In this document: piece after piece, positions 3,334 to 26,835 of the stretch
How positions within the stretch are numbered: position 1 is the first letter of the stretch
Layout of the letters: the number at the start of each line of letters is the position of its first letter
From: Candidatus Methanoperedens sp.
Lineage (GTDB): Archaea; Halobacteriota; Methanosarcinia; Methanosarcinales; Methanoperedenaceae
DNA: 32,000 nucleotides
Assembly: GCA_041494705.1 (NCBI GenBank)
Contig: JBGQBI010000001.1
Coordinates: 150,001-182,000, forward strand
Direction: 5' to 3'
Translations under genes and position numbers: made by a program
Notes under the pieces: model-generated
The model's input: the letters and a program-made list of their open reading frames with translations, nothing else
Told to the model about the DNA's origin: nothing
The model's database searches: none

Positions 3334-4699
3334 AAATCCGCCCGTATTCGTCCTCGAACCTCTCAATATCGTCCTCTCCCACGTAATCACCAAGCTGCAC
3401 TTCTATGATTTCAAGCGGGATTGTTCCGGGGTTTGATAAACGATGCTTTACTTTAGCCTTTATGAAAGTACTTTCTCCTTCTTCCAGACGTTTTTCTTCA
3501 CCATCGACCTGCACCAGTGCAATTCCTTTTACCACTACCCAGTGCTCGCTCCTGTATTTGTGCAACTGGAGGCTGAGTTTTTTTCCCGGCATGACCCTTA
3601 TGTTTTTTATCTTGTGTCTTCCTGACGTTTCAAGTATGGTGTACGAGCCCCACGGCCTGTACACGGTCTGGTGAAGAAGTGCCTTTTCATCTTTCTTTTC
3701 TTTGAGCGCGGTAACTATTTCCTTGACTTTCTGTGAGCTTTTCCTCGGACATACAAGCAGCGCATCATCCGTATCCATCACAACCATATCATTAACATCG
3801 ATAAGCGATACTGCTTTGCCTTTCTTTGAATAAATCAGGTTGGCAGTGGAATTTATTGAGATATCCTCGCAATTGTAGATGGCATTACCTTTTTCATTCT
3901 TTTCAGTTTCTACATACATAGAATCAAAGTCGCCAAGGTCGCTCCATTTATATCCCAGCTTTACAACTGCTACTTTTTCAGATTTTTCCATGATGCCGTA
4001 ATCAATTGAGATGGAAGGGAGTTTCTTGTATATTTGACCGATATCATTGCGTTTCGTGAATGCAGTAAAAATATCAGGTGAATGGGTTTTAAGTTCGTTG
4101 AAAAATAGTTTTGTGTTAAAAAGGAACATGCCGCTGTTCCACAGGCATCCTTCTTCGATATATTTCCTCGCAGCTTCCAGTTTGGGTTTTTCCATGAACT
4201 TGAGAACTTTTTGGGCATTTTCCAGATTTTCCCCGGGTTTTATGTAACCATAGCCTGTATGAGGGAATGCCGGCGCAATCCCGAAGGTAACAAGATATTC
4301 CCCGGCCAATTTCTCCGCGCCTCTTATAGTACCCATGGCATCCATATCCAGTACGTGGTCTGAAGGGAACACGCCAACTGCGCATTCACCGAACTTTTTT
4401 TCTATCTCACTCATTCCAAAACATATTGCAGGGAGAGTATTCTTTCCCTCCGGTTCGATAAGGACGTGGTCTTCAGGGAGATGATGCCCGAGTTCCTCGA
4501 TTTGTCCTGTAACAAAGAACTTCTGGGCATCGTTCGTGACTACGAATATTTCGGTGATGTCCGATATCTTAAGACACCGAAGCAGTGTATTCTGGAAAAG
4601 CGAGGTTTTGCCAAGTTTTAAAAACTGTTTCGGGTACTGTTCCCTGCTCAGCGGCCAGAGGCGAGTGCCAGACCCGCCTGCAAGTATTATTGATTTTAT
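3332..4699 (-). CDS. manC: mannose-1-phosphate guanylyltransferase / mannose-6-phosphate isomerase (bifunctional ManC type), start codon non-canonical
   Basis: The track ORF (3332..4414) continues in frame for 95 more codons without a stop. That stretch encodes the canonical N-terminus IKSIILAGGSGTRLWPLSREQYPKQFLKL. The C-terminus is a cupin domain (LSLQLHKYRSEHWVVVKG...). No ATG/GTG/TTG exists in frame upstream of 4414. ATA at 4699..4697 sits where Met is expected, 8 nt after GGGAG. Confidence 0.8.
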   Translation of the reverse strand: MKSIILAGGSGTRLWPLSREQYPKQFLKLGKTSLFQNTLLRCLKISDITEIFVVTNDAQKFFVTGQIEELGHHLPEDHVLIEPEGKNTLPAICFGMSEIEKKFGECAVGVFPSDHVLDMDAMGTIRGAEKLAGEYLVTFGIAPAFPHTGYGYIKPGENLENAQKVLKFMEKPKLEAARKYIEEGCLWNSGMFLFNTKLFFNELKTHSPDIFTAFTKRNDIGQIYKKLPSISIDYGIMEKSEKVAVVKLGYKWSDLGDFDSMYVETEKNEKGNAIYNCEDISINSTANLIYSKKGKAVSLIDVNDMVVMDTDDALLVCPRKSSQKVKEIVTALKEKKDEKALLHQTVYRPWGSYTILETSGRHKIKNIRVMPGKKLSLQLHKYRSEHWVVVKGIALVQVDGEEKRLEEGESTFIKAKVKHRLSNPGTIPLEIIEVQLGDYVGEDDIERFEDEYGRI

Positions 4700-4739: not shown

Positions 4740-5900
4740 TCACGTCACTATCTCTTCCACTCTCTCCTCTTCGATAGCGCGCCTTATTTCCATTGCCATT
4801 CTTCGCCCTGTGCTCATGGGTTTGCGCCAGAGCGTATTGCCGTACGGGTGACCCACTGATACATGCACATTCGTGCCTCCGCCCACACGCGGCGCCACAT
4901 CGTATACATAGAAATTCAGGTCTTTGTCCACGCAGGTCTGGAGGCAGAACGGGCCGATAATCCCGGGTTTATAGTATTTCCGGGTCGCTTCCACGTATTT
5001 TCTGGCAAGTTCGAATGCGTCCTCAAGCAACGATTCACGAAGCGTTGCCGAGTTATGCCCGCATACCGTGTATTCAGGCGTTACCTGGCGCTCATTTAGC
5101 GCCATCTGCTGCGGCGCAGGCAATCGCACATGCCCGTCAAGGCTCGTCTCAAAGCGCCAGTCGATGCCGAGTAATTCGATTTTGCTCATTTCCTCCTCTA
5201 TTGGCGAGTAGAACATATCAAGGTTAAAAACCGGTCCAATGACATATCGTTCTATCCGTGCTTCTGCAAGGGCTTCCCGTGTAATTACTCCCTGTTTCAG
5301 GAACGCCTCTGATTTTTTCTTGAATTCTGAAAACGACGCAGCCGTGAAGAACCCGCGTTCAAGTTTCTTTACTGCATGAGGGAGTTTCACCATAACGAGG
5401 CTGTCGATATCTTCGGGTTTTTCAATTTTTTCAGGGAAGGGAAGACCCGCTTTTTCAAGCAGCCAGTAATAATCCCGCGGAATTCCCCGCTCTTCGCTGC
5501 GGAGGAGGTTCCGGCTCCCGAACATCGGAACCTTGAAACTGTCTTCTATTTCATCTATACCGCAATAAGAAGTAAACGAGCGGTTCGGAATAAAAATCGT
5601 GTTTTTATCCCGCAGTTTCTTCTGGTTCCCGGGTTTTAATATTTCATTGAATTTATTATAAACATCTGCGCTGTCCACAATCCCGCGTATGAGTTTTCCC
5701 TTCTTCCTCTCTGCCTTAAAATATTCTGTATATGTCTTCTCCCGTCCCTTTTCGCATACCGCATGAGTCCTGAAACCTTCCTCAACCGCCCCATCGCAAA
5801 CGTCAAGAGCAGAATGAGATGCCAGCACTCCAACCGTGGCTTCACTCAAATCGTATCCCGATAAAACATCTATTATTTCCTTTCTATCTATCATATTCAC
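4740..5900 (-). CDS. purP: 5-formaminoimidazole-4-carboxamide ribonucleotide (FAICAR) synthetase, archaeal PurP
   Basis: 386 aa ATP-grasp-like protein. The N-terminal VGVLASHSALDVCDGAVEEGF and overall length and pattern match archaeal PurP (recognised from memory of the family). Confidence 0.75.
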   Translation of the reverse strand: MNMIDRKEIIDVLSGYDLSEATVGVLASHSALDVCDGAVEEGFRTHAVCEKGREKTYTEYFKAERKKGKLIRGIVDSADVYNKFNEILKPGNQKKLRDKNTIFIPNRSFTSYCGIDEIEDSFKVPMFGSRNLLRSEERGIPRDYYWLLEKAGLPFPEKIEKPEDIDSLVMVKLPHAVKKLERGFFTAASFSEFKKKSEAFLKQGVITREALAEARIERYVIGPVFNLDMFYSPIEEEMSKIELLGIDWRFETSLDGHVRLPAPQQMALNERQVTPEYTVCGHNSATLRESLLEDAFELARKYVEATRKYYKPGIIGPFCLQTCVDKDLNFYVYDVAPRVGGGTNVHVSVGHPYGNTLWRKPMSTGRRMAMEIRRAIEEERVEEIVT

Positions 5901-5951
5901 CTGTAGGTCTTTTACGTCTATGAAGGTTACGATTTTGGAAACTGCGCTCCA

Positions 5952-6692
5952 TTATTTTTTGGCTTCGGCAATTATAATATTAGCGCGCCCTTTTTTGATT
6001 TTTTTGACTAAACCCCTGTTTTCCAGGTCAGCTATCATCAGGCTGACCTTCGCCTCTCCATATTTTACTTCTTTTCTCAGCTCCTTCTGGGTTACCCTTC
6101 CTCCTTTTTTCATTATCAGCTCATAAATCCCGCGCAGGTCTTCAGGCAGTTCTGTGATTTCGGTTTTTGCTATGTTTTCAGGAGGAATCCCAATGGTTTC
6201 TCCAGCGCCCTGTTCAATCGGCTTATTTTTCTTTTTCCTCATCCAATAAAGAATCAATAAAGCAGCGAACACGAGGAATGTGGTAATTATGTAATATATT
6301 TGATTAGAATCGCTTTTTAAAACCAGGTCGCCGGTCAGATTTATGTCGCCAAGATATTGGTTTTCCAATTCCGTGGGCGGGAAAAGCAGGAGGTCATGGA
6401 CATAATCTCCTTCCCGGTCAATACGTATCTCATCTTCGGCAGCAAATTCAAGGATATTATTGCGGTAGTATTTTGCCTTAATCATATAATTGCCGGATGA
6501 GAGATTGAATGAATATGTCCCGTTCGTTGATACCACATACTGTGACGGTGTGGAGTTTACTTCAACAATTGCGCCCTTAAGAGGTTTCTCAAAATCTGAC
6601 CATTCGTAAATGGTGCCGTGTAAAGTTGCGGCTTGCGCGCCACTAATGAAGATGACTGTAAATAAAATACCTAAGAGAAAACTTTTTCTCAT
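5952..6692 (-). CDS. membrane-anchored protein: signal peptide, carboxypeptidase-regulatory-like beta domain, TM helix, C-terminal winged-helix DNA-binding domain
   Basis: The internal start MRKSFLLGILFTVIFISGAQA (ATG 6692) gives a signal peptide. TM helix: IYYIITTFLVFAALLILYW. The C-terminus IYELIMKKGGRVTQKELRKEVKYGEAKVSLMIADLENRGLVKK is wHTH-like. The upstream part of the track ORF is AT-rich junk. Confidence 0.6.
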   Translation of the reverse strand: MRKSFLLGILFTVIFISGAQAATLHGTIYEWSDFEKPLKGAIVEVNSTPSQYVVSTNGTYSFNLSSGNYMIKAKYYRNNILEFAAEDEIRIDREGDYVHDLLLFPPTELENQYLGDINLTGDLVLKSDSNQIYYIITTFLVFAALLILYWMRKKKNKPIEQGAGETIGIPPENIAKTEITELPEDLRGIYELIMKKGGRVTQKELRKEVKYGEAKVSLMIADLENRGLVKKIKKGRANIIIAEAKK

Positions 6693-6901
6693 CAACACAT
6701 AGTCTAATCTTAAAAGAGAATATATATAGTTTATTATAAAGTTAAAAAAGCATTTATAGAGGTTTGTAAAGGATTCAAAAGCCTGGAAAAAGCTGAAATT
6801 TTTATCATATAAAAGCATGCTTATCTATTCTGCGATTATAGTATTGGCAACCACTTGTAGAATAGTTGGCGATTGAACAAAAAATAATAGGAGGCAATGA
6901 A

Positions 6902-8155
6902 ATGAAAAATAGACATAGGTTCACTATATTAACGTCGCTTGTTGCGGTTGTATTTATATTGAGCCTGTTCTCAGGAATCGCAGCGGCCCAAAAGCCAGAC
7001 GGAAATAACGGAAACCATGAGAAATTTGCAAATACAGAAAAACAATTTCAGAGTGCAAAGGCACAATTGGATAAGGCATTAAAGCAATTCAATGCTAAAA
7101 AGGACAGCAAATCAAAGGATGAACTCGTACTCACAACCAGGGAGTATCTTGAAACAGCAATAAATCATACAATTTCATATCTTGATGTCCTGAAATCCAG
7201 AGCAGAAAAGCCTGAAAACCAGGGGATAATCCCATTCAATGTTTCTACAAATGCCGATGCTCATGTTGCGGAACTGGAACAGCTAAGAACAAAAGTAGAG
7301 CAGGATAACACAACCGAGGAATTTAGAGCAGATAATACCGAATTAAAGAATATATACTCCGGGATAAGACTTGAAACCCAATATGATTTCGCTATACTGC
7401 TTGATAATACAATAGGTAAATTCATTACAAAGTCGGATAACGTGTCAGCAAGACTTAATGTGGAAATTCAGAACCGGAAATCTAATGGCACAGATACATC
7501 CAATCTTGAGGCAATCGCTGCAAATTTCACGAATTTGATGCAAGAAGCAAGAGCCGGCCAGCAGAAAACAGAAGTGTTGTTAGCAACCCACACAGGATTT
7601 GACAATTCTGGCATGGTTATAAATAATACGGATGCCCAGGCTTTCTTGAAGAACGTAGACGATTCTCAAAAAGGAACAATCAAAACAATGAGAGATGCAA
7701 GCAGGCTATTGCAGGATTTCGTCAAGGATTACAGAAAACTCTCGGCTGGAAATGCCACAGCAGGAGGTAAGACAGCAAATAAGGAGAACGGGCGAGGCGG
7801 AAAAACCCTGGTCAAAGGGACAGGTACATTGGTAGCTAATGGCAGCGGTAGGGCAGTAATCCAGGGAAATGTCACAGTTTCGCTTTCCGGAACAAACGTT
7901 ACCTTGACAGTCTCAAGTAATGCCGCCGTTACCACAGATAGCGGTACAAACCAGACTCTCGGCAACGGACAGGTCAAATATCAGGGATTTAACTCAGCAA
8001 CAATAACGGGCGACAACATCAGAGTCGGAATATCCGGCAACAATATCAGCCTCACCGCCACGGGCACAGGTGCAGCAGTTCTTAACGGCAATGGAACATA
8101 TACAACCGAAAATGCTTTCGGTGTGAGCGGCGAATGGAAGAAAGGAGGAGCATGA
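6902..8155 (+). CDS. secreted protein rich in N-glycosylation sequons with C-terminal beta-strand repeats
   Basis: ATG 6902 lies 8 nt after AGGAGG. Signal/TM segment FTILTSLVAVVFILSLFSGIAAAQ. There are many NxS/T sequons. The C-terminal repeats are GNVTVSLSGTNVTLTVS / GDNIRVGISGNNISLTATG. No PGF-CTERM-type tail is present. Confidence 0.6.
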   Translation: MKNRHRFTILTSLVAVVFILSLFSGIAAAQKPDGNNGNHEKFANTEKQFQSAKAQLDKALKQFNAKKDSKSKDELVLTTREYLETAINHTISYLDVLKSRAEKPENQGIIPFNVSTNADAHVAELEQLRTKVEQDNTTEEFRADNTELKNIYSGIRLETQYDFAILLDNTIGKFITKSDNVSARLNVEIQNRKSNGTDTSNLEAIAANFTNLMQEARAGQQKTEVLLATHTGFDNSGMVINNTDAQAFLKNVDDSQKGTIKTMRDASRLLQDFVKDYRKLSAGNATAGGKTANKENGRGGKTLVKGTGTLVANGSGRAVIQGNVTVSLSGTNVTLTVSSNAAVTTDSGTNQTLGNGQVKYQGFNSATITGDNIRVGISGNNISLTATGTGAAVLNGNGTYTTENAFGVSGEWKKGGA

Positions 8156-8445
8156 AAATTGTGTATATATTGCTGGTGCTCATACTCGCAGCATCAGCTT
8201 TAGGTTGTGTGGGCAATAAGCAATCTGAAGTAACACCCACTCAAACCACCCAGGCTCCTGCCACCCAGACTCCTCCCACACAGGTTGAAACATCCGTAGC
8301 TCCGACAGAAACACCGGTTTCTGCTGCAGCAACTACAACCCCATCAGGCAATGACCAGTTCGCGACGCAGAGCGACATTAGTACAATTGATTCGCTGGTC
8401 AACGACTCAAGCATGGATATTCCCCTGTACGATGTAAATATCTAA
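8152..8445 (+). CDS. lipoprotein with Thr/Pro-rich linker
   Basis: ATG 8152 overlaps the upstream stop (ATGA) and follows GGAGGAG. The lipobox-like LAASALGC is followed by a TPTQTTQAPATQTPPTQ linker. Confidence 0.6.
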   Translation: MKIVYILLVLILAASALGCVGNKQSEVTPTQTTQAPATQTPPTQVETSVAPTETPVSAAATTTPSGNDQFATQSDISTIDSLVNDSSMDIPLYDVNI

Positions 8446-17984: not shown

Positions 17985-19430
17985 TTATTTACTTTGTACA
18001 TCTCCCGTTCCACGCATGGCTGAGACAATAATTGCGGGCACGGTGATTATCGAAGAGAGGATAAATGCCGCGGCTATACCTCCGGTAAAGGCTTCCTGCA
18101 CAGCTACAGGCATGCTTGCACCGCCCCTGACAAACATATCCATCATCGCAGGAAGAGAAATAGTTCCCATAATCAGCGGAAAAGCTATTCCCATGCTCAG
18201 CACCATGCCGGCGCTATTGAAAAACGCTCTCATGGATGAGGCCACACCGCGCCGCTCCGGGGCAACCGACGACATAATGGCGCTGGTATTCGGGGGCTGG
18301 AACAGCCCGGAACCGAAACTGTTGATAAACATCCATACTGCAAGTATCCAGTAAGGGGTATTGTAATGCATAGTCGCTAAACCAAGGAGGCCGACTAAGG
18401 ATATAACCAGCCCTATTGTGCTTATGCTCCTTGAGCCGTATTTATCAGATAGCACCCCGCCTATCGGGCCTGTAATCGCAAGACCGATTGCAAGAGGAAT
18501 TGTGAGTATGCTTGCCATAAGGGGGTCATAGCCCCAGGGGCCCTGGAAGAAAAGTATGAGGAGAATCATTACCGCTCCCCTGGCTATGGAATTAAGAAGG
18601 GCGCTTAACTGTCCGTAAGAGAAGATTTTATTCTTGAAAAGATTCAAATCCATCAGCGGATAGGTTGCCCTCTTTTCTACCCGCAGGAAAGCTGCAAAAC
18701 TTATAATCGCGATAAAAAGCGACAGAAGCATTGGACGCGATGTCAAACCGAGAACAAATCCTGCAGTGAGGTAAATCATAGACGTGATGAAGGCGATAGT
18801 AAATAATATCATTCCTTTGAAGTCGAATGTTTCCCCTTTCGGAAGTACCGCAACTTCTTTTAGTTTTAAATGAGCCCACACTGTGACAACGATACCGATG
18901 GGGACATTGAAAAAGAAATTCAGCCTCCAGTCTATCAATGTGAGGAAACCTCCCAATATGGGGCCAATAACAAATGCTGCCGCCATTATCATGCTGAGAA
19001 TTCCCATTGCTTTTCCCAGTTCGTCCCGCTTGAAAGCATCGGTTACTATTATTGTGCCGTTAGCCACGAGCATCGACCCGCCCACAGCCTGTAGTACCCG
19101 AAAAGCGATAAGCTGGCCAATGTTAGCGGATAAACCGCAGAGAAGCGAGCCGATTGTAAACACTGCCAGCCCGTAAACGTACAGCTTTTTCCGCCCGTGG
19201 ATGTCTGCAAGCCTGCCCCACGCGGGCGCAAGTATGGTCATGATAAGCATGTAGCTGATAAGCACCCACATTATCCCGAAGAGGTCTGTGTTCAGCTTGA
19301 CCATCATGGTTGGAAGGGCGATTATCAGGGTGCTGGCATTGAGGATTCCGACAAGCATTCCGAGAGAAGCTACGGTAAGGGCAGTCCATTTGTAGTCTCT
19401 CTGCGTTTTTTTATCAATGTTAGAGTTCAT
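17985..19430 (-). CDS. MFS transporter, 14-TMS drug:H+ antiporter (DHA2/EmrB-like)
   Basis: GRLADIHGRKKLY (MFS motif A) and LQAVGGSMLVANG, with length consistent with 14 TMS. The start could be ATG 19430 or 19442. Confidence 0.75.
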   Translation of the reverse strand: MNSNIDKKTQRDYKWTALTVASLGMLVGILNASTLIIALPTMMVKLNTDLFGIMWVLISYMLIMTILAPAWGRLADIHGRKKLYVYGLAVFTIGSLLCGLSANIGQLIAFRVLQAVGGSMLVANGTIIVTDAFKRDELGKAMGILSMIMAAAFVIGPILGGFLTLIDWRLNFFFNVPIGIVVTVWAHLKLKEVAVLPKGETFDFKGMILFTIAFITSMIYLTAGFVLGLTSRPMLLSLFIAIISFAAFLRVEKRATYPLMDLNLFKNKIFSYGQLSALLNSIARGAVMILLILFFQGPWGYDPLMASILTIPLAIGLAITGPIGGVLSDKYGSRSISTIGLVISLVGLLGLATMHYNTPYWILAVWMFINSFGSGLFQPPNTSAIMSSVAPERRGVASSMRAFFNSAGMVLSMGIAFPLIMGTISLPAMMDMFVRGGASMPVAVQEAFTGGIAAAFILSSIITVPAIIVSAMRGTGDVQSK

Positions 19431-19631
19431 GGTAAATCTCATAAAAGTTGAAGAGATGTTTAATTCAAACTCAGATATTTAAAATTATGTGCGAAGAAAT
19501 CGCATCAAAAGGATGCAGACATTTGCAAGAATGAATCCGGATGGGTAAACCTTTAAGCCGATATGAGAAAAATATAACACACTCAATGACAGAAACACTC
19601 CGGCCTTCGGTCGGAAAAAGGAGATATTTTC

Positions 19632-20297
19632 ATGAACGTCACGGAAGCCCTGAATTCCCGTTATTCCACCCGCGCCTTTAAATCTGACCCTGTTGACCAG
19701 GAAACGATTCTCAAGATACTGGAAGCCGCAACCCGCGCGCCCTCATGGGCAAATACCCAGCCGTGGGAGATATTCGTTGCAGGCGGGGAGGCTCTGGAAA
19801 GGCTGCGGCAGGGTTATCTTTCAAATTTTAAGATCGATGTGCCCCGTCAATCGGATTTACCAAGACCCGAACTCTGGCCTCCAGCCCATCAAAAGCGCAT
19901 TGAGGAATTGGGGGCGAAACGCTTTGGTCTTCTTGGAATTAAACGCGATGACAAAGCCCAAAGACAGGCATTTTCCGAGGCGAACTCTAAGTTTTTCGGG
20001 GCGCAGGTTGTCGTTTACCTGTGCATGGACCGCACCCTCACGCCCTGGTCGGTATTCGATATCGGAATGCTGGCCCAGAGTATTATGTTAGAGGCACAGG
20101 AATATAATCTCGGCTCGATACCTGCTTTTATGCTGGTATCTTACCCTGAGCTAATCCGAGCAGAACTGGAAATCCCGGAAGACCTGTCGATTATAATCGG
20201 AATTGCTCTTGGCTACAGCGATACGCAGCATCCGCAGAATAAGTTCAGGAGCCCACGGCGGGATATCAGGGAAGTTGTCAGGTTTAAAGGGTTTTAA
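19632..20297 (+). CDS. nitroreductase-family flavoprotein
   Basis: RYSTRAFKSDPV and EAATRAPSWANTQPWEIFV are the classic nitroreductase N-terminal motifs. GGAG lies upstream of the ATG. Confidence 0.8.
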   Translation: MNVTEALNSRYSTRAFKSDPVDQETILKILEAATRAPSWANTQPWEIFVAGGEALERLRQGYLSNFKIDVPRQSDLPRPELWPPAHQKRIEELGAKRFGLLGIKRDDKAQRQAFSEANSKFFGAQVVVYLCMDRTLTPWSVFDIGMLAQSIMLEAQEYNLGSIPAFMLVSYPELIRAELEIPEDLSIIIGIALGYSDTQHPQNKFRSPRRDIREVVRFKGF

Positions 20298-20302
20298 TCC
20301 TT

Positions 20303-20318
20303 AATCCTGATTCATGGG
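20303..20318. repeat. left copy of 16-nt direct repeat AATCCTGATTCATGGG (candidate attL)
   Basis: Matches 23213-23228 (AATCCTGATAAATGGG) at 14 of 16 positions. It lies 6 nt after the nitroreductase stop and ends where integrase homology begins. Confidence 0.5.
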
Positions 20319-20871
20319 ATTTTTATTATGGTGGGATTTTAAAGAAAAATTTTGCTTATGATATCAAAAGACCAAAGAAAGACAAAAAGTTGCCTGTTGT
20401 GATGAACGGTGTTGAGATTTCTCAAATGCTTTCATCGGTTAGCAACATAAAACACAGAGAAATCCTGATGCCCATATATTCTACGGGTTTAGTGTGAGTC
20501 AGGTCGTGAAGTTAAGGTACGAATAAATCGACGCTGAAAGAAAGCTCGTTCACTTAAAAAGTGCAAAGGGGAGAAAGGATAGGTACACGATACTTTCGGA
20601 TGTGGCGTTGGAAACGATAAGGAAATACCTGAAGAAATATGGTCAATCAAGATGGCTATTTCCATGTCAAGATAAAGAAAACCATATAACAACTCGGTCA
20701 TTTGAACAGATATTCTCAAATGCTTGTAAAAAATCGAACATCGAGAAAGACGTCACGGCGCATTCTCTCAGGCATAGCTTCGCTACGCATCTACTTGAAT
20801 GCGGTACAGACCTGCGGTATATCGAGGAGGTGGTGGGGCACAAGAGTTCAAAGACAACAGATATATATACG
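20318..20871 (+). pseudogene. tyrosine recombinase (XerC/D-IntI-like) pseudogene, truncated at both ends
   Basis: Conceptual translation: FYYGGILKKNFAYDIKRPKKDKKLPVVMNGVEISQMLSSVSNIKHREILMPIYSTGL. A frameshift follows (stop at 20495-20497), then VSQVVKLRYE, then an in-frame TAA at 20524-20526. It continues [23 protein letters not shown]...[38 protein letters not shown]. The HxxR, GH and Tyr boxes are present. The N-terminal SAM-like domain is missing, and homology ends right after the catalytic Tyr-Thr. Confidence 0.8.
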
Positions 20872-20966
20872 CCCAGCCGTTATATGCCATTGCGGGCAGA
20901 AGAAAGAGATAGTGATTTCGATGCCTACAAAACCAACACTAAATTCGAACAGAAAGGAGCTTTGTT

Positions 20967-21260
20967 ATGTTAATGCCAATGGACACGACAGGAAGCAGCC
21001 TTCCAGAATTAATTAAGTCGAAGCGTGCGGAGTTTACACAATTGGTCGAAATTCAGGGGGGATTTTCTGGCATCGACCAGGAAGTCAAGGCTGAACTCGC
21101 AAAGTTAGAGGCTTTGGTGGTGACGAACGGGCGAGCGATGATGGGACTACCATTCATCTGGGGGTCGATCAGGATATTAGCGATCTATGGGAGATGGTCT
21201 TGGTGGAGAACACCTACACCAAAACCACCACCCTCAGAGGCCCGAGTGAATCTTGCTTAA
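20967..21260 (+). CDS. hypothetical small protein (97 aa) with one C-terminal hydrophobic/Trp-rich segment
   Basis: ATG lies 7 nt after AAAGGAG. The segment [21 protein letters not shown] is followed by a Pro/Lys tail. It is the first ORF of the GC-rich core. Confidence 0.5.
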
Positions 21261-21285
21261 GACCAAACTGCGCAGAGGTCTTGAC

Positions 21286-23094
21286 ATGCGCGCGATTGTT
21301 GAGCGCGGCCTTCGTCTAGAAGCACAACGGTCAACTCCTGCGCTTCCCGACGTAGCGGCTCTGTGCCTTCGCATCGCGCACCATGCGCACGCTCTCGGAA
21401 TGTTGGATGGGAGCTCTACCGTGCTCGTGGACTGGGCTACGAGCCGGTATGAAGCCTGGGCCGCCTCGCTCCACAACTCAGACTTAGAAGTCGTCAAGGC
21501 AACCCTCGCTTCGGACCCCGTCAACCTGCTAATCGGTGGGCTTTGCCTCCCTGATGAGGACGCCCGAGAACGTGTGTTTGCGACTTACCTAACCTTCGCA
21601 CAATGCTTCAATGACCAAGGCATTTCGGTCGCCTCAGTCAAGAACGCACCGCTCGTCGGAGCCCTTCTCCGCGCCATGGGTCGCAAGGAAAAAGCAGATT
21701 GTCTGCCTTCCTCGTCTAACAGTCGTCCGGTTCTTTGGGTCGATATTGACGAGATTGCGAGGTTTGCACTTAGCGCTACCGAATTTGGAAGCAGGCTCGT
21801 TGTCTTGCAAGAGCAACGATCTATCGAGGCGGTCGTTGAGGCTCACCTCGTCAAATCGGCACGTACCTGTGATATCAATCGTGCGGGATATGCACTTCTT
21901 ACAGCAGCACTCCTTGGTATCGCGCGGGAGCGGTCGCAGGAACTTGTTGCGTGGTTAGCCAGGATGTTTCGGAGTGACGGCCTCATTGGATATTTGGAGT
22001 TCTACGAGGGTATCGAGACACGCGCCAACCTCCTGGTCTGCGCCAACGCCTACTGGGGGCTTCATATCGCGTGTAGGCCAGAAACGCCGTTGTATCCGAC
22101 CCTGACGCGCGTGCGCGACACTGTAGGCGTTTCAAGGCAAGCAATCAATTTGATACCGTCGATTCCCAACATCGACGTGAATCGGTGTGAACGGGTGGGG
22201 CATTCGCTCTGCAGGTGGCTTGAAGAGCGTCTTCCAAAGTTCAGCCTACTGCCAGCATGCAAGGACCGAGCAGACTTTGACAATCGCTTCAAGCCACTGA
22301 CAGAGATGTTTCTGATCCTTTTCATGCTCACTCGGCCAGAGCACGTTGAGTTGGGCTCCCCCTTTGTTCCATGGGCTAGGCGCATGACTGAGAAGCTTGC
22401 GGACCACCTCGACTGGGAGGGACTCGTAGAGAGCTTCAGAATGCACGCGACCGATTCGATCGGACTCATGGCGCCTCTCCTGTTAGAACAGCTCACTGGC
22501 AGACAATCTCGCTTCCACGATGAGTTGGTCGAGCTCTTGCGCCATCCCCTCGCTCAAGCCAAAGAGCGGACGCCGATGAGACAATTGGAGTTCCACATGG
22601 TCCGTTATCTCCATGGGGAGGCGAATGCCCTTGGGGATATGAAGGAGGAGTTATCGCGGACCTTGCTTGGTCGTGCGTGTGATCCGCTATACTTCTCCAA
22701 TGAGGATGCGTACGACATTACACATGCAGTAATCTACGCCCTAGCGTTAGGCTGGACATCTGATTCGGGCATTCTTGCGTCATACCGTCCCTGGCTAAGC
22801 CGCCATCTAACAAGCCTCACGCTTGCCAGCATGCTGGACGGAGATTTCGATCTGGGTGGCGAGTTCCTGATTTGCCACCTTCTCGACCAACAGGAGCCGG
22901 ATGTCAAGTTCGTACTGTCGGTCGAGCTTCTTCTCGATGCCGTTCAAGAGGACGGCGCGATATCGGGGCCGTCTCGGGAGATGCGTGAGGACATGGACGC
23001 TTTCGAGCGATGTTACCACACGACGCAGGTATGTTTGGTTGCATTGGCGGAAGTTTGGATCGCGCAGCTGCGACCGAAACCCACACATACCTAA
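21286..23094 (+). CDS. hypothetical large helical protein (~602 aa), no recognisable catalytic motif
   Basis: The only long ORF in the GC-rich core; antisense ORFs there are 144 aa or shorter. The start is either ATG 21286 or TTG 21253. Leu/Ala/Arg-rich. The C-terminal third has YDITHAVIYALALG, DGDFDLGGEFL, VQEDGAISGP and CYHTTQVCLVAL. Confidence 0.7.
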   Translation: MRAIVERGLRLEAQRSTPALPDVAALCLRIAHHAHALGMLDGSSTVLVDWATSRYEAWAASLHNSDLEVVKATLASDPVNLLIGGLCLPDEDARERVFATYLTFAQCFNDQGISVASVKNAPLVGALLRAMGRKEKADCLPSSSNSRPVLWVDIDEIARFALSATEFGSRLVVLQEQRSIEAVVEAHLVKSARTCDINRAGYALLTAALLGIARERSQELVAWLARMFRSDGLIGYLEFYEGIETRANLLVCANAYWGLHIACRPETPLYPTLTRVRDTVGVSRQAINLIPSIPNIDVNRCERVGHSLCRWLEERLPKFSLLPACKDRADFDNRFKPLTEMFLILFMLTRPEHVELGSPFVPWARRMTEKLADHLDWEGLVESFRMHATDSIGLMAPLLLEQLTGRQSRFHDELVELLRHPLAQAKERTPMRQLEFHMVRYLHGEANALGDMKEELSRTLLGRACDPLYFSNEDAYDITHAVIYALALGWTSDSGILASYRPWLSRHLTSLTLASMLDGDFDLGGEFLICHLLDQQEPDVKFVLSVELLLDAVQEDGAISGPSREMREDMDAFERCYHTTQVCLVALAEVWIAQLRPKPTHT

Positions 23095-23212
23095 TGTCAC
23101 ATCAACTCTCAAAAGTCTGAAAGTCTGGATAACTTTATCCTTGCATCTTCGGTTGTAAATCGCCAATTTACTTTCGCATTTTTATTTTTGGCAAGTAAAA
23201 GCATATCAAAAA

Positions 23213-23228
23213 AATCCTGATAAATGGG
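23213..23228. repeat. right copy of 16-nt direct repeat AATCCTGATAAATGGG (candidate attR)
   Basis: Its last 4 nt (TGGG, 23225-23228) are the discriminator base plus the first three acceptor-stem positions of the minus-strand tRNA-Val. Confidence 0.5.
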
Positions 23229-23298
23229 CCCGCGGAGATTCGAACTCCGGATCTCTTCCATGTCAAGGAAACGTCATAACCAACTAGACCACGAGCCC
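23225..23298 (-). tRNA. tRNA-Val (anticodon GAC)
   Basis: The reverse complement folds by hand as a 74-nt cloverleaf. Acceptor GGGCUCG/CGGGCCC, D arm GUCU-AGUUGGUUA-UGAC, anticodon stem UUUCC/GGAAG with loop UUGACAU. Variable loop AGAUC, T arm CGGAG-UUCGAAU-CUCCG, discriminator A. CCA is not encoded. Confidence 0.9.
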
Positions 23299-23516
23299 AG
23301 TTCATTCCACCAGTGGATTATCGCTATTAGGCGATTGTAGAGGTAATCATCCCTTTTTTTAGAAATTATCCACTTTCTTGGAAGTGGGCGTTAATAAGAA
23401 TCCAAAGCAAATATACTTATCGAAAATTAGAGGTTGTTTTAATTCGTGTTGGTAGTTATGTCAAGATATAATATATCTATGAAAACCACCTTGCATGGAT
23501 TATGAAATATTTTCCT

Positions 23517-24146
23517 TCAGTGCTTTTTAAAGCTATTATTTCCATAAAAAAAGTATTTCCCCCAATCCTTTAATCCCATGCCACCAGCAAAGTTAAACTC
23601 TTTAGTAAAATAAAGGGGTCCTGACTGGAGCCGACCTATCAAATCATCGCTAATATTGGCATTTACAAGTTCTCTTACTTTTTTTACAAAGTAATCCAAG
23701 TAAAAAAGAATTTCAGGTTCTCCTGTAGTTAAATCTGTTGTCACTTTAGAAGGGTATCTTACCTCGTTAAAATTATATAATATATCAATAAGAATCCCAA
23801 CACCATCTTCCTTGAAGAATTCATCCTTTTCTTGACAACATTCCAATAATTTCTTTAAATCATGGTTCTTAAATACAATTTCTTTCCCTTCAGTATCTCT
23901 ATAGCCTTTAATATACTTGCCATTTATCCCGTAATGTTTCAAAATGAAGGCTTTTAAATATTTTTCGACTGCCTGCTGCATGTGGTATGCCCCTAATCTA
24001 TAAAGATCAGAAAGCATCAATATACGAGTGGTTATGTAATCCTCGGATGCCAGCCGTAACCATAAATCAGGATTATATTCTATACTTAAATCTTTCAATT
24101 CCTCCAAGCTTAACATGTCTGAAGTTATTGGGGGCACATTATTCAA
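23517..24146 (-). CDS. HEPN-domain protein (209 aa)
   Basis: The YHMQQAVEKYLKAFIL (QAxEKxLKA), KNHDLKKLLE and NEVRYPS pattern matches the classic HEPN (PF05168-like) helices. A sampled line is about 32% GC. No adjacent nucleotidyltransferase gene. Confidence 0.65.
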   Translation of the reverse strand: MNNVPPITSDMLSLEELKDLSIEYNPDLWLRLASEDYITTRILMLSDLYRLGAYHMQQAVEKYLKAFILKHYGINGKYIKGYRDTEGKEIVFKNHDLKKLLECCQEKDEFFKEDGVGILIDILYNFNEVRYPSKVTTDLTTGEPEILFYLDYFVKKVRELVNANISDDLIGRLQSGPLYFTKEFNFAGGMGLKDWGKYFFYGNNSFKKH

Positions 24147-24429
24147 ATCATCAACCTCTTAACCTCCCACAACTTTTCTAAGCATAAGTCTTTCAATTTT
24201 ACAAGACAGAAAGGCGCAAACACGCTCTGCAAGGGCAACGTATCGCCGTTGCATCACTCACAAAGTCATGAAGATTGCCCTCCGTCCTAAAGCGACACGC
24301 ACAAGTGCGCTTACCGAACGCTTATTAGATACCCCAAGCTCCCTAAAAAGTGGTCTTGCAGAAATATCATAACTCATGTCGCAGCGATTAAGCCAAGTTT
24401 TATATTTCAATAAATTAAAATACTTTTCA

Positions 24430-25939: not shown

Positions 25940-26184
25940 ACTTTCCCTCAACTGACCAGGACTATGATGCTTGATATGGGACGAAGAATTCTTCAATCAT
26001 CCACGATTCAAGTTCTTCAGCCTCTTTTTTTCCCCCATTTATCAAGGCTGGCCGTTTTTGATGGATTTCAGTTATTTTTTTGTTCATTTAAATCGATGGC
26101 ATCCCTCGGGATGACAGTCTCCAATAAGAAAAAGTCTTTTTGAGGATTTAAATGTATCGATTTAATGCTTCAGTACATCAGGGG

Positions 26185-26835
26185 TTACCTTAAATAGATA
26201 TAATTCTGCCCGTTCAGGCCTATTATTTGATGATAATAAACAGGCATAATTATTTCTGCATTATTCCTGCCTATATACACGTCTTTACCGAAATATGCAT
26301 ACTCGTACCCATATACATGGAACATATCATTTTTCTTTAAAATTTGGTCAGTCTGCGGGTCTACAAAATAAAGCTCCTTATCCAGAACAACAGATGCCAG
26401 CATATGCCAGTCGTTTTGACCTTTTACCGCGCCCGTTAATCCTACCGCATAAACTTCAAATCCTGCATCTGTGGCGTTTTTTATGAAGTCTTTTGTAAAT
26501 TGGGAACACACATACTGGTCCTGATAAGATTTTGAATTATCCACCGTATAAGAATGTTTATTTGTTGTATCTGTTTCTAGCCATGAAACGAATTTTTCAT
26601 ATTTAGTCAAGGGATTTACAGGAGTAACATTGTTGGAGGCAGAAGATGGCGTCTTGGTTGCAATAATGTCCGGAATATTATTTGAAGTATTATCTGGTAT
26701 TCCGGGGACGAGAGTAGCATTTGGTGCCGAATCAATTGTGGTGTTCGTACTTTCCGGTTGACCTGGAATTGAAACTTTTTCTATACAGCCTGAGACTAAA
26801 ATAGTAATAAAAAATACAATTAACCATTTTTTCAT
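26185..26835 (-). CDS. lipoprotein with transglutaminase-like / papain-like Cys-His-Asp signature
   Basis: Lipobox ILVSGC, then a Thr/Pro/Asn-rich linker. The C-terminal part reads YVCSQFTKDFIKNATDAGFEVYAVG...NDWHMLASVVLDKELYFVDPQTD (C, H and D in the transglutaminase-core order). The region is visibly AT-rich by eye (not counted). Confidence 0.55.
   Translation of the reverse strand: MKKWLIVFFITILVSGCIEKVSIPGQPESTNTTIDSAPNATLVPGIPDNTSNNIPDIIATKTPSSASNNVTPVNPLTKYEKFVSWLETDTTNKHSYTVDNSKSYQDQYVCSQFTKDFIKNATDAGFEVYAVGLTGAVKGQNDWHMLASVVLDKELYFVDPQTDQILKKNDMFHVYGYEYAYFGKDVYIGRNNAEIIMPVYYHQIIGLNGQNYIYLR

Follow-up and report, generated by a model that had tools for sequence, protein, structure and literature searches.

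A decayed foreign islet, probably a captured integron-like fragment, beside tRNA-Val in Candidatus Methanoperedens

Here we describe an islet of foreign DNA beside the tRNA-Val gene of the methane-oxidising archaeon Candidatus Methanoperedens sp. (assembly GCA_041494705.1). The islet lies between a nitroreductase gene and the tRNA gene in a stretch of 32,000 nucleotides (nt) of contig JBGQBI010000001.1 (positions 150,001-182,000, forward strand), which we call the window and whose own numbering is used throughout. It is a mosaic of a broken tyrosine recombinase gene, a pair of cargo genes rich in guanine and cytosine (GC) and an AT-rich non-coding tail, and it is missing at this place from three relatives. 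We consider it probable that the islet is an inert scar of horizontal transfer, left when a broken integron-like fragment was captured by microhomology in the T-rich spacer between nitroreductase and tRNA-Val. A first-pass annotation of the same DNA had instead proposed a classic integrative element attached at the 3' end of the tRNA gene, and the comparison with the empty sites of the relatives refutes that mechanism.

Empty sites, boundaries and composition of the islet

Homologues of the nitroreductase gene place the window in Candidatus Methanoperedens. We compared the locus with that of three relatives, L005 (JBAVMS010000005.1), L006 (JAPZAO010000160.1) and L091 (Ga0210114_1004477), at approximately 93-95% DNA identity, and the islet is absent from all of them. 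When the window was aligned against these empty sites with blastn and MAFFT, the homology was interrupted at two copies of the hexamer ATTTTT, one at each junction (Table 1), and this hexamer is present only once in the empty sites, as ATTTTT in L006 and as ACTTTT in L005. In addition, the 9-bp string ATTTTTATT occurs at both ends of the insert (20319-20327 and 23178-23186). In L005 and L006, the nitroreductase stop codon is separated from tRNA-Val by a spacer of 58 nt, and both 16-mers of the repeat discussed below are inside it. Thus, the state taken as ancestral in the first-pass annotation, with nitroreductase convergent on tRNA-Val, does exist in these two relatives. L091 has neither the islet nor the nitroreductase gene, and there window position 19521, in the upstream region of the MFS-transporter gene, is joined directly to the CTGATTCAT spacer that precedes tRNA-Val. 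The annotation had also predicted that an empty site would join 20302 to 23213, and had named the lack of such a junction in relatives as a refutation of its own proposal; what the alignment gives is left-flank homology that runs on to 20324 and right-flank homology that resumes at 23184. A search of JGI metagenomes with the exact empty-junction pattern returned 0 matches, and a second pattern in those metagenomes, placed on the tRNA trailer, returned L091 only.

Table 1. Positions of the islet, its parts and its flanking features in the window
Feature	Position	Strand	Remarks
Nitroreductase gene, left flank	19632-20297	+	Pfam PF00881, 2e-26; 92% identical in L005 and L006; absent from L091
Left 16-mer, AATCCTGATTCATGGG	20303-20318	+	Already-existing chromosomal spacer, found in all three empty sites
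Left ATTTTT, junction duplication	20319-20324	.	Flank homology ends at 20324
Tyrosine recombinase remnant	20321-20871	+	Pfam Phage_integrase, 8e-23; NCBIfam XerA_Arch best family; three-frame translation, tblastn, alignment
Inserted DNA	20325-23189	+	2,865 bp with a single ATTTTT included; not in L005, L006 or L091
Spacer, recombinase remnant to cargo	20872-20966	+	No stable fold
ORF97	20967-21260	+	Small conserved partner of the DUF6895 gene; invariant 10-letter motif
DUF6895 gene	21253-23094	+	Intact, 613 amino acids, TTG start; C-terminal DUF6895, Pfam PF21836, 1e-38
AT-rich non-coding insert tail	23095-23183	+	No attC-like hairpin
Right ATTTTT, junction duplication	23184-23189	.	Chromosomal homology resumes here
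Right 16-mer, AATCCTGATAAATGGG	23213-23228	+	tRNA trailer and final 4 nt of tRNA-Val; already in the empty sites
tRNA-Val(GAC)	23224-23299	-	Intact; ARAGORN; in no duplication

The GC content changes abruptly at about 20970 and about 23095, as it would if high-GC bacterial DNA had been fused to an archaeal contig during assembly or binning, and two contigs from the Logan assemblies stop within the tRNA, at 23253. We regard such a chimera as excluded for practical purposes, because the sequence over both junctions is identical in independent assemblies. The Logan assemblies SRR29605729 and SRR29604878 contain contigs 100% identical to the window (19081-23253 and 19318-23253), each of which crosses both junctions and the two GC steps between them, and the window is also identical to part of the 97-kb JGI contig Ga0534151_0000019, in which the whole locus is spanned. 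The cargo protein of 613 amino acids (aa) is on record from a 2.07-Mb NCBI contig as well (at the level of the protein record). Moreover, a low-GC recombinase remnant and an AT-rich tail both lie inside the insert, and the flanks agree with the empty sites to the single base. As for the end of the two Logan contigs (L002 and L003) at 23253, a third contig, L004, covers 23224-24258, and the 30-nt (k-1) overlap between them is the exact 3' end of the tRNA, which means that another sequence in those samples carries the same 30-mer. We considered a population polymorphism as the reason for this break and rejected it, since an empty site from the same strain would fork the assembly at 23183/23184 and not at 23223/23224. 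A 30-mer common to another tRNA gene is the simpler and likely cause.

The insert is foreign in composition. GC content is 55-56% over 21000-23000, with a peak of 61% in 300-nt windows, versus 44% in the rest of the window. The high-GC islet of the first-pass annotation is therefore real, its hand counts for the core (57-65%) being slightly above what we measured; the values that it gave for the flanks, about 47% for the nitroreductase gene and about 32% for the HEPN gene beyond tRNA-Val, come out at 51% and 33.5%, respectively. It had also proposed a GC and tetranucleotide profile as a check, and in this profile the cargo is the most deviant 2 kb of the window in tetranucleotide use, with a correlation of -0.15 to the background. 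The profile, the 55% GC of the cargo and the three empty sites mark the islet as a genuine lineage-specific insertion of foreign DNA. A blastn search of the islet against plasmid and phage records gave no match. Among the features of insertion sequences and transposons, only the 6-bp duplication is present; there is no open reading frame (ORF) for a transposase, and none of the inverted repeats found is a terminal one.

A pre-existing 16-nt repeat beside tRNA-Val

The proposal of a tRNA-targeted element was built on a 16-nt direct repeat, and the repeat itself is as it had been described. Sequence and ARAGORN together confirm the positions of both 16-mers, their 14/16 match and the 4 nt by which the right copy enters tRNA-Val(GAC), the sole tRNA that ARAGORN found; this overlap follows from the discriminator base, which by reading is placed at 23225. 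The match is also one that shuffled sequence seldom gives (p ~0.003). A 16-mer of this kind is expected 0.02 times per window at <=2 mismatches, and when a space of 60 x 130 positions, as scanned in the first pass, was sampled, 8 of 2000 shuffles and 6 of 3000 randomly paired segments of real sequence gave a match of 14/16. The computed p of ~0.002-0.004 is slightly better than the ~1e-2 estimated in the first pass, which had called the repeat suggestive and not proven.

In the classic scheme, attP would have recombined with the 3' end of tRNA-Val, and the 16-nt core AATCCTGATNNATGGG would have been duplicated as attL and attR. This scheme is favored by the nominally unusual repeat (p ~0.003) and the overlap of its right copy with the tRNA end, by the integrase remnant and the foreign cargo that lie between the copies, and by a precedent from the same genus, a 409-kb Methanoperedens element at tRNA-Asp with 14-bp direct repeats (PMC13444090). 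However, the empty sites leave it with hardly any probability, and as the mechanism behind this islet it is refuted. Each of the three empty sites has both 16-mers, at a spacing of 44-45 nt, and there they are only 10-12/16 alike (12/16 in L005, 10/16 in L006 and 10/16 in L091), two of the matches behind the 14/16 score of the window being due to substitutions at 20315 and 23219. Thus, the 16-mers flank the insertion point without being a product of the insertion. The alignment to the empty sites continues past the left copy and resumes 29 nt before the right one, so that the insert lies between the 16-mers, 35 nt beyond the end of an untouched tRNA. The window holds no partial tRNA copy (no second copy of the 3' 30 nt of tRNA-Val at <=3 mismatches), and the integrase remnant is at the end distant from the tRNA. 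The order of att, integrase, cargo and tRNA 3' end resembles the classic geometry only superficially, the remnant being truncated on both sides, and tRNA-Val itself has no demonstrable role in the insertion.

Two further short repeats were noted in this region. A third copy of the 16-mer, inverted (TAATCCTGATTTATGG, 24060-24075, minus strand) and 15/16 identical to the left copy, lies within the HEPN frame, where it encodes NPDLW; it is not at the edge of the variable HEPN segment described below, and its presence is probably a coincidence. At the nitroreductase stop codon (20294-20307) there is a 7-nt tandem duplication, TTAATCC TTAATCC, which is single copy in L005 and L006.

Recombinase remnant, cargo genes and neighboring DNA

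The tyrosine-recombinase pseudogene reported in the first pass is real, with a Pfam Phage_integrase match at 8e-23. It corresponds to residues 152-335 of P0005, a homologue of 361 aa, with 84-85% identity; homology extends from FYYGG (20321-20335) to IYT (~20871), and the first 151 and last 26 codons of P0005 are missing. The reading frame is further broken by a 1-nt deletion near 20491/20492 and by an in-frame TAA at 20524-20526, while the codon for the catalytic Tyr is retained. The remnant stands at the left border of the islet, distal to the tRNA, and this border cuts its reading frame, with the chromosomal T-run overlapping its Phe-Tyr codons. In SSV-type ('suicidal') archaeal integrases, the gene is split on integration into a tRNA gene. 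We examined a splitting of this type and rejected it, as only residues 152-335 (P0005) were found and tblastn with six intact homologues detected no N-terminal integrase fragment elsewhere in the window; nor is there an att core common to the int frame and the tRNA gene, ATTTTT being in the spacer. A scan of viral contigs with P0005, the closest intact recombinase, found no relatives.

Thousands of archaeal homologues, with identities of 61-86%, belong to the family of the remnant, and many of them are on contigs of 1-3 kb. Intact members pass the XerA_Arch profile (234-248 bits; cut-off 220) and stay below the cut-off of the integron-integrase profile TIGR02249 (216-233 bits; cut-off 265), which they match in two stretches, the first of them ending at profile position 178-179. 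The remnant matches positions 234-298 of this profile and has only a short LFP...H linker, with no IntI-specific additional domain.

Just after their stop codon, the intact homologues at six loci from three elements (L092-L097) carry a conserved site, ATATGCGAA-N5-TTCGGATAT-N(4-7)-GTT, and partial versions (TTCGGATAT...GTT) are visible by eye in the same place in L098 and L099. The intact homologues that have this attI-like site are 63-73% identical to the remnant. L092 and L093, and not L094 and L095, contain a cassette of 574 bp inserted exactly at ...AACTTG|TT... (L092, 7116-7689; L094, 4766-4768). Within the cassette is a 145-aa ORF, and at its end an imperfect hairpin of ~100 nt, GCGACTATGCG...CGCATAGTCGC, with a folding energy (dG) of -21 kcal/mol and z-scores from -2.1 to -2.8; an Rfam scan of the cassette region of L092 returned nothing. 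Archaeal integrons have been described as having attI directly downstream of intI, attC cassettes, insertion at a canonical point and exchange of cassettes across domains (Ghaly et al. 2022, PMC9668308), and an attI-like site directly 3' of the gene together with insertion at G|TT fits this description. The same study describes the IntIs of archaeal integrons as carrying the IntI-specific domain, and its supplementary table includes a Methanoperedens metagenome-assembled genome (MAG) with 4 attCs and no IntI (PMC9668308). We note a very abundant archaeal XerA-like family with a downstream attI-like site, for one member of which the presence and absence of a hairpin cassette was seen; this family may be the enzyme behind the archaeal attC arrays reported without IntI.

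The cargo consists of ORF97 and the DUF6895 gene, both of which are real genes whose direct donor is unsampled. An ORF97-like ORF, at 45-67% identity, lies directly upstream of each close DUF6895 homologue examined (on the P0002 and P0003 contigs). Relatives of the 613-aa protein are few: only three close homologues were found among 5.8 billion proteins, the two-domain form makes up ~20 clusters at 50% identity in 1.84 billion representative proteins, and a third, profile-based protein search added only a fragment, P0128. One homologue, P0002, is 78% identical and is encoded on contigs of 66% GC, which are bacterial, as indicated by the sigma-70 and SLH-domain genes on one of them, L085. Nucleotide homology to L085 amounts to 77.7% and is limited to 21006-23078. 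In comparison with this contig, the DUF6895 gene has a ratio of nonsynonymous to synonymous substitution (dN/dS) of 0.18 and ORF97 one of 0.27 (dS 0.79). A search of the sequence around the L085 cargo homologue for R''...R' attC-like pairs in canonical order was negative. A second homologue, P0003, is 63% identical and comes from bacterial contigs of 65% GC, in which the gene pair itself has only 53% GC. On two of these contigs (L088 and L089), the pair adjoins a true IntI with a contiguous TIGR02249 match (149-315), and in L089 an attC-like site, GCACATGAGGCATAAC...GTTATGCCTCATGGGC, lies downstream. The integron integrase of L088 (4630-9021) is split by IS66, with three IS66-family genes and one further ORF at 5521-8439. 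To judge by these sequences, the cargo is of bacterial origin.

The DUF6895 protein is predicted to be all-helical, with two alpha/alpha-toroid domains (AlphaFold2 model, AF2; pLDDT 84, pTM 0.86), and the model has weak matches to class II terpene cyclases. A PDB sequence search with the protein found nothing, and PADLOC found nothing for the cargo, the HEPN gene or the neighboring ORFs. The sole clue to the function of the cargo is the title of a 2026 ACS Catal. article by Shi et al. (cited in PMC13352647), in which a DUF6895 member is called a lasso-peptide epimerase. A peptide-modifying role for the cargo is a guess. Both cargo genes are open, and they may be expressed.

The DNA around tRNA-Val is variable on both sides. 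The nitroreductase gene is an indel itself (19522 to ~20305 in comparison with L091), which makes three locus states among relatives that are 93-95% identical, and many bacterial phyla contain close homologues of it (identity up to 64%). A similarity of the form AATCC...GGG at 19531-19547 was considered as a repeat flanking the nitroreductase gene and discarded, as it is not conserved in L005 or L006. On the 5' side of the tRNA, the HEPN region (23451-24331) is replaced in L005 (10943-11633) and in L006 (6991-7681) by a module that encodes a protein of 148 aa resembling a PIN-domain toxin (by eye) and a 57-aa partner. Thus, gene content varies to either side of tRNA-Val, with presence or absence of nitroreductase and of the islet toward its 3' end and an exchange of HEPN for a PIN-like toxin-antitoxin pair toward its 5' end. 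Farther away, a 216-aa ORF on the minus strand (26185-26835; 36% GC; no Pfam or PADLOC match) is absent from L005 and L006, where its flanks are joined (indel 26163-26832), and neither a hairpin nor G|TT-type ends, as an integron would leave, were seen at this indel. Compared with the window, L006 has ~840 bp extra between the TctA and MFS genes (3517-4357), and the synteny of L005 with the window is lost left of 16601.

Origin of the islet and comparison with known systems

We could envisage the following history. The source piece would have been an archaeal integron-like element that was already broken and retained part of its recombinase gene and its first cargo unit, the cargo pair occupying the first-cassette position and being ultimately bacterial. 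At the left join, the chromosomal ATTTTT would have been laid over the recombinase Phe-Tyr codons TTTTAT, and at the right join ATTTTT would have recurred, giving the 6-bp duplication. Such a process would most likely have been an illegitimate, microhomology-mediated capture and not a recombination at the tRNA. At present the islet is immobile: a functional recombinase is lacking, and so are attI, attC and att sites.

Several points weigh against this history. A 6-bp duplication is equally expected from a tyrosine recombinase acting at a 6-bp overlap region. The recombinase family does not have the IntI-specific domain that defines integron integrases. The integron-like origin is suggested by the relatives of the remnant, and in the islet itself the corresponding traces are missing: the attI motif ATATGCGAAANNANTTCGGATAT, present in L092-L097 and partially in L098 and L099, is absent from the window at <=3 mismatches, and neither cargo boundary has an attC-like fold, the fold of 23092-23192 being as weak as in shuffled sequence (z = 0.0 and -0.55 on its two strands). 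In the spacer that follows the remnant, GTTATATG (20879-20886) matches the insertion points of L098 and L099, a likeness that was seen only after the fact and lacks an R'' box as partner; in a longer form, GTTATATGCCATTGCGG (20879-20895) resembles the sequence at and after the G|TT point in L098 (GTTATATGAAATGGCGG) and in L099, which is again a weak and post hoc similarity and would be the only hint of an integron-type boundary. Finally, parsimony alone does not decide between an insertion in the lineage of the window and a deletion in the relatives through ATTTTT microhomology, since the four sequences lie at almost equal distances (93-95%) and their tree is weakly resolved. Neither the junction nor the foreign character of the insert is affected by when the gain or loss took place.

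If the relatives had lost the islet, it would be ancestral at this locus and would have been excised precisely when its two ATTTTT(ATT) repeats recombined. A deletion between repeats of 6-9 bp would leave exactly the single copy that is seen, and the branch of the window is the longest of the four, with 40 private sites versus 21-35; the window could then be the outgroup, and one deletion would account for all three empty sites. Against this, a weak signal groups the window with L005 (14 sites versus 9 and 7), which would require two or more identical deletions, and the foreign DNA would still have had to enter this junction at an earlier time, so that the timing would change and not the nature of the event. 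We judge an ancestral islet to be quite improbable.

A somewhat better chance, albeit still a small one, can be given to a history in which a tyrosine recombinase integrated a larger, complete element site-specifically near the tRNA, at a short ATTTTT(ATT) core, the element then decaying by internal deletions to 2.9 kb. The 6-bp repeat, extended to 9 bp as ATTTTTATT at both ends, has the size of the overlap region of a tyrosine recombinase, a recombinase remnant is present at one border, and the neighborhood of the tRNA is variable on both sides. However, a left junction in the recombinase frame needs an attP within the gene, as in the SSV type, and the N-terminal half is absent at the right border. 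The family has its own attI-like site with a G|TT insertion point, and no GTT is found at either junction. It is also improbable that a later deletion would have stopped exactly at the original junction. Both this scenario and that of an ancestral islet fit less well than microhomology capture, which remains our preferred explanation.

More speculatively, the captured fragment could be what remains of an integron-like platform of archaea, its first cassette (ORF97-DUF6895) having come from a bacterial integron, with the XerA-like family then servicing attC cassettes in many archaea. We see this as an unlikely proposal. If true, the islet would be a natural and fixed example of cassette transfer from a bacterium to an archaeon, and searches of the IntegronFinder type would miss a recombinase family that has no IntI-specific domain, which could explain why attC clusters without an IntI make up most of the archaeal integrons reported. 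More generally, an abundant XerA-like recombinase with an attI-like site, and with a hairpin cassette seen once, may bear on the function of archaeal integrons. The base-level boundaries and the empty sites document that a rare pair of bacterial genes has moved into an archaeal methane oxidiser. They also provide a caution, as a statistically unusual short repeat next to a tRNA can be a pre-existing coincidence, and it is the comparison with empty sites that decides.

The islet shares features with several known systems. The DUF6895 lasso-peptide epimerase, so named in that title, would be comparable in that the islet protein has a DUF6895 C-terminal half and a small partner ORF, as a peptide-modifying enzyme might; in contrast to it, there is no lasso cyclase or leader peptidase near the islet, and the protein has an additional N-terminal toroid domain. 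Similarly to SSV-type integrases, the left border of the islet falls inside a recombinase frame whose C-terminal part reads inward, but the window has no N-terminal fragment, the target is not a tRNA and the recombinase is XerA-like. The 409-kb Methanoperedens element at tRNA-Asp, with integration of the pNOB8 type and 14-bp direct repeats (PMC13444090), is like the islet in belonging to the same genus, in being foreign and tRNA-adjacent, in having a tyrosine recombinase gene and in being present in some relatives and absent from others. In contrast, the islet has a duplication of 6 bp that contains no tRNA sequence and is 35 nt away from the tRNA, its recombinase is a fragment distal to the tRNA, and its proposed 16-nt att pre-exists. 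As in archaeal integrons (PMC9668308), intact homologues of the remnant have an attI-like site after the stop codon, with one hairpin cassette at G|TT, and the cargo of the islet lies downstream of the recombinase, on the same strand and in the place of a first cassette, with a homologue in a bacterial integron; unlike them, the islet lacks attI, attC and an intact recombinase and is an isolated fragment in a chromosomal spacer. The islet is a new example of a known phenomenon, a decayed and horizontally acquired islet with a cross-domain and probably integron-linked history.

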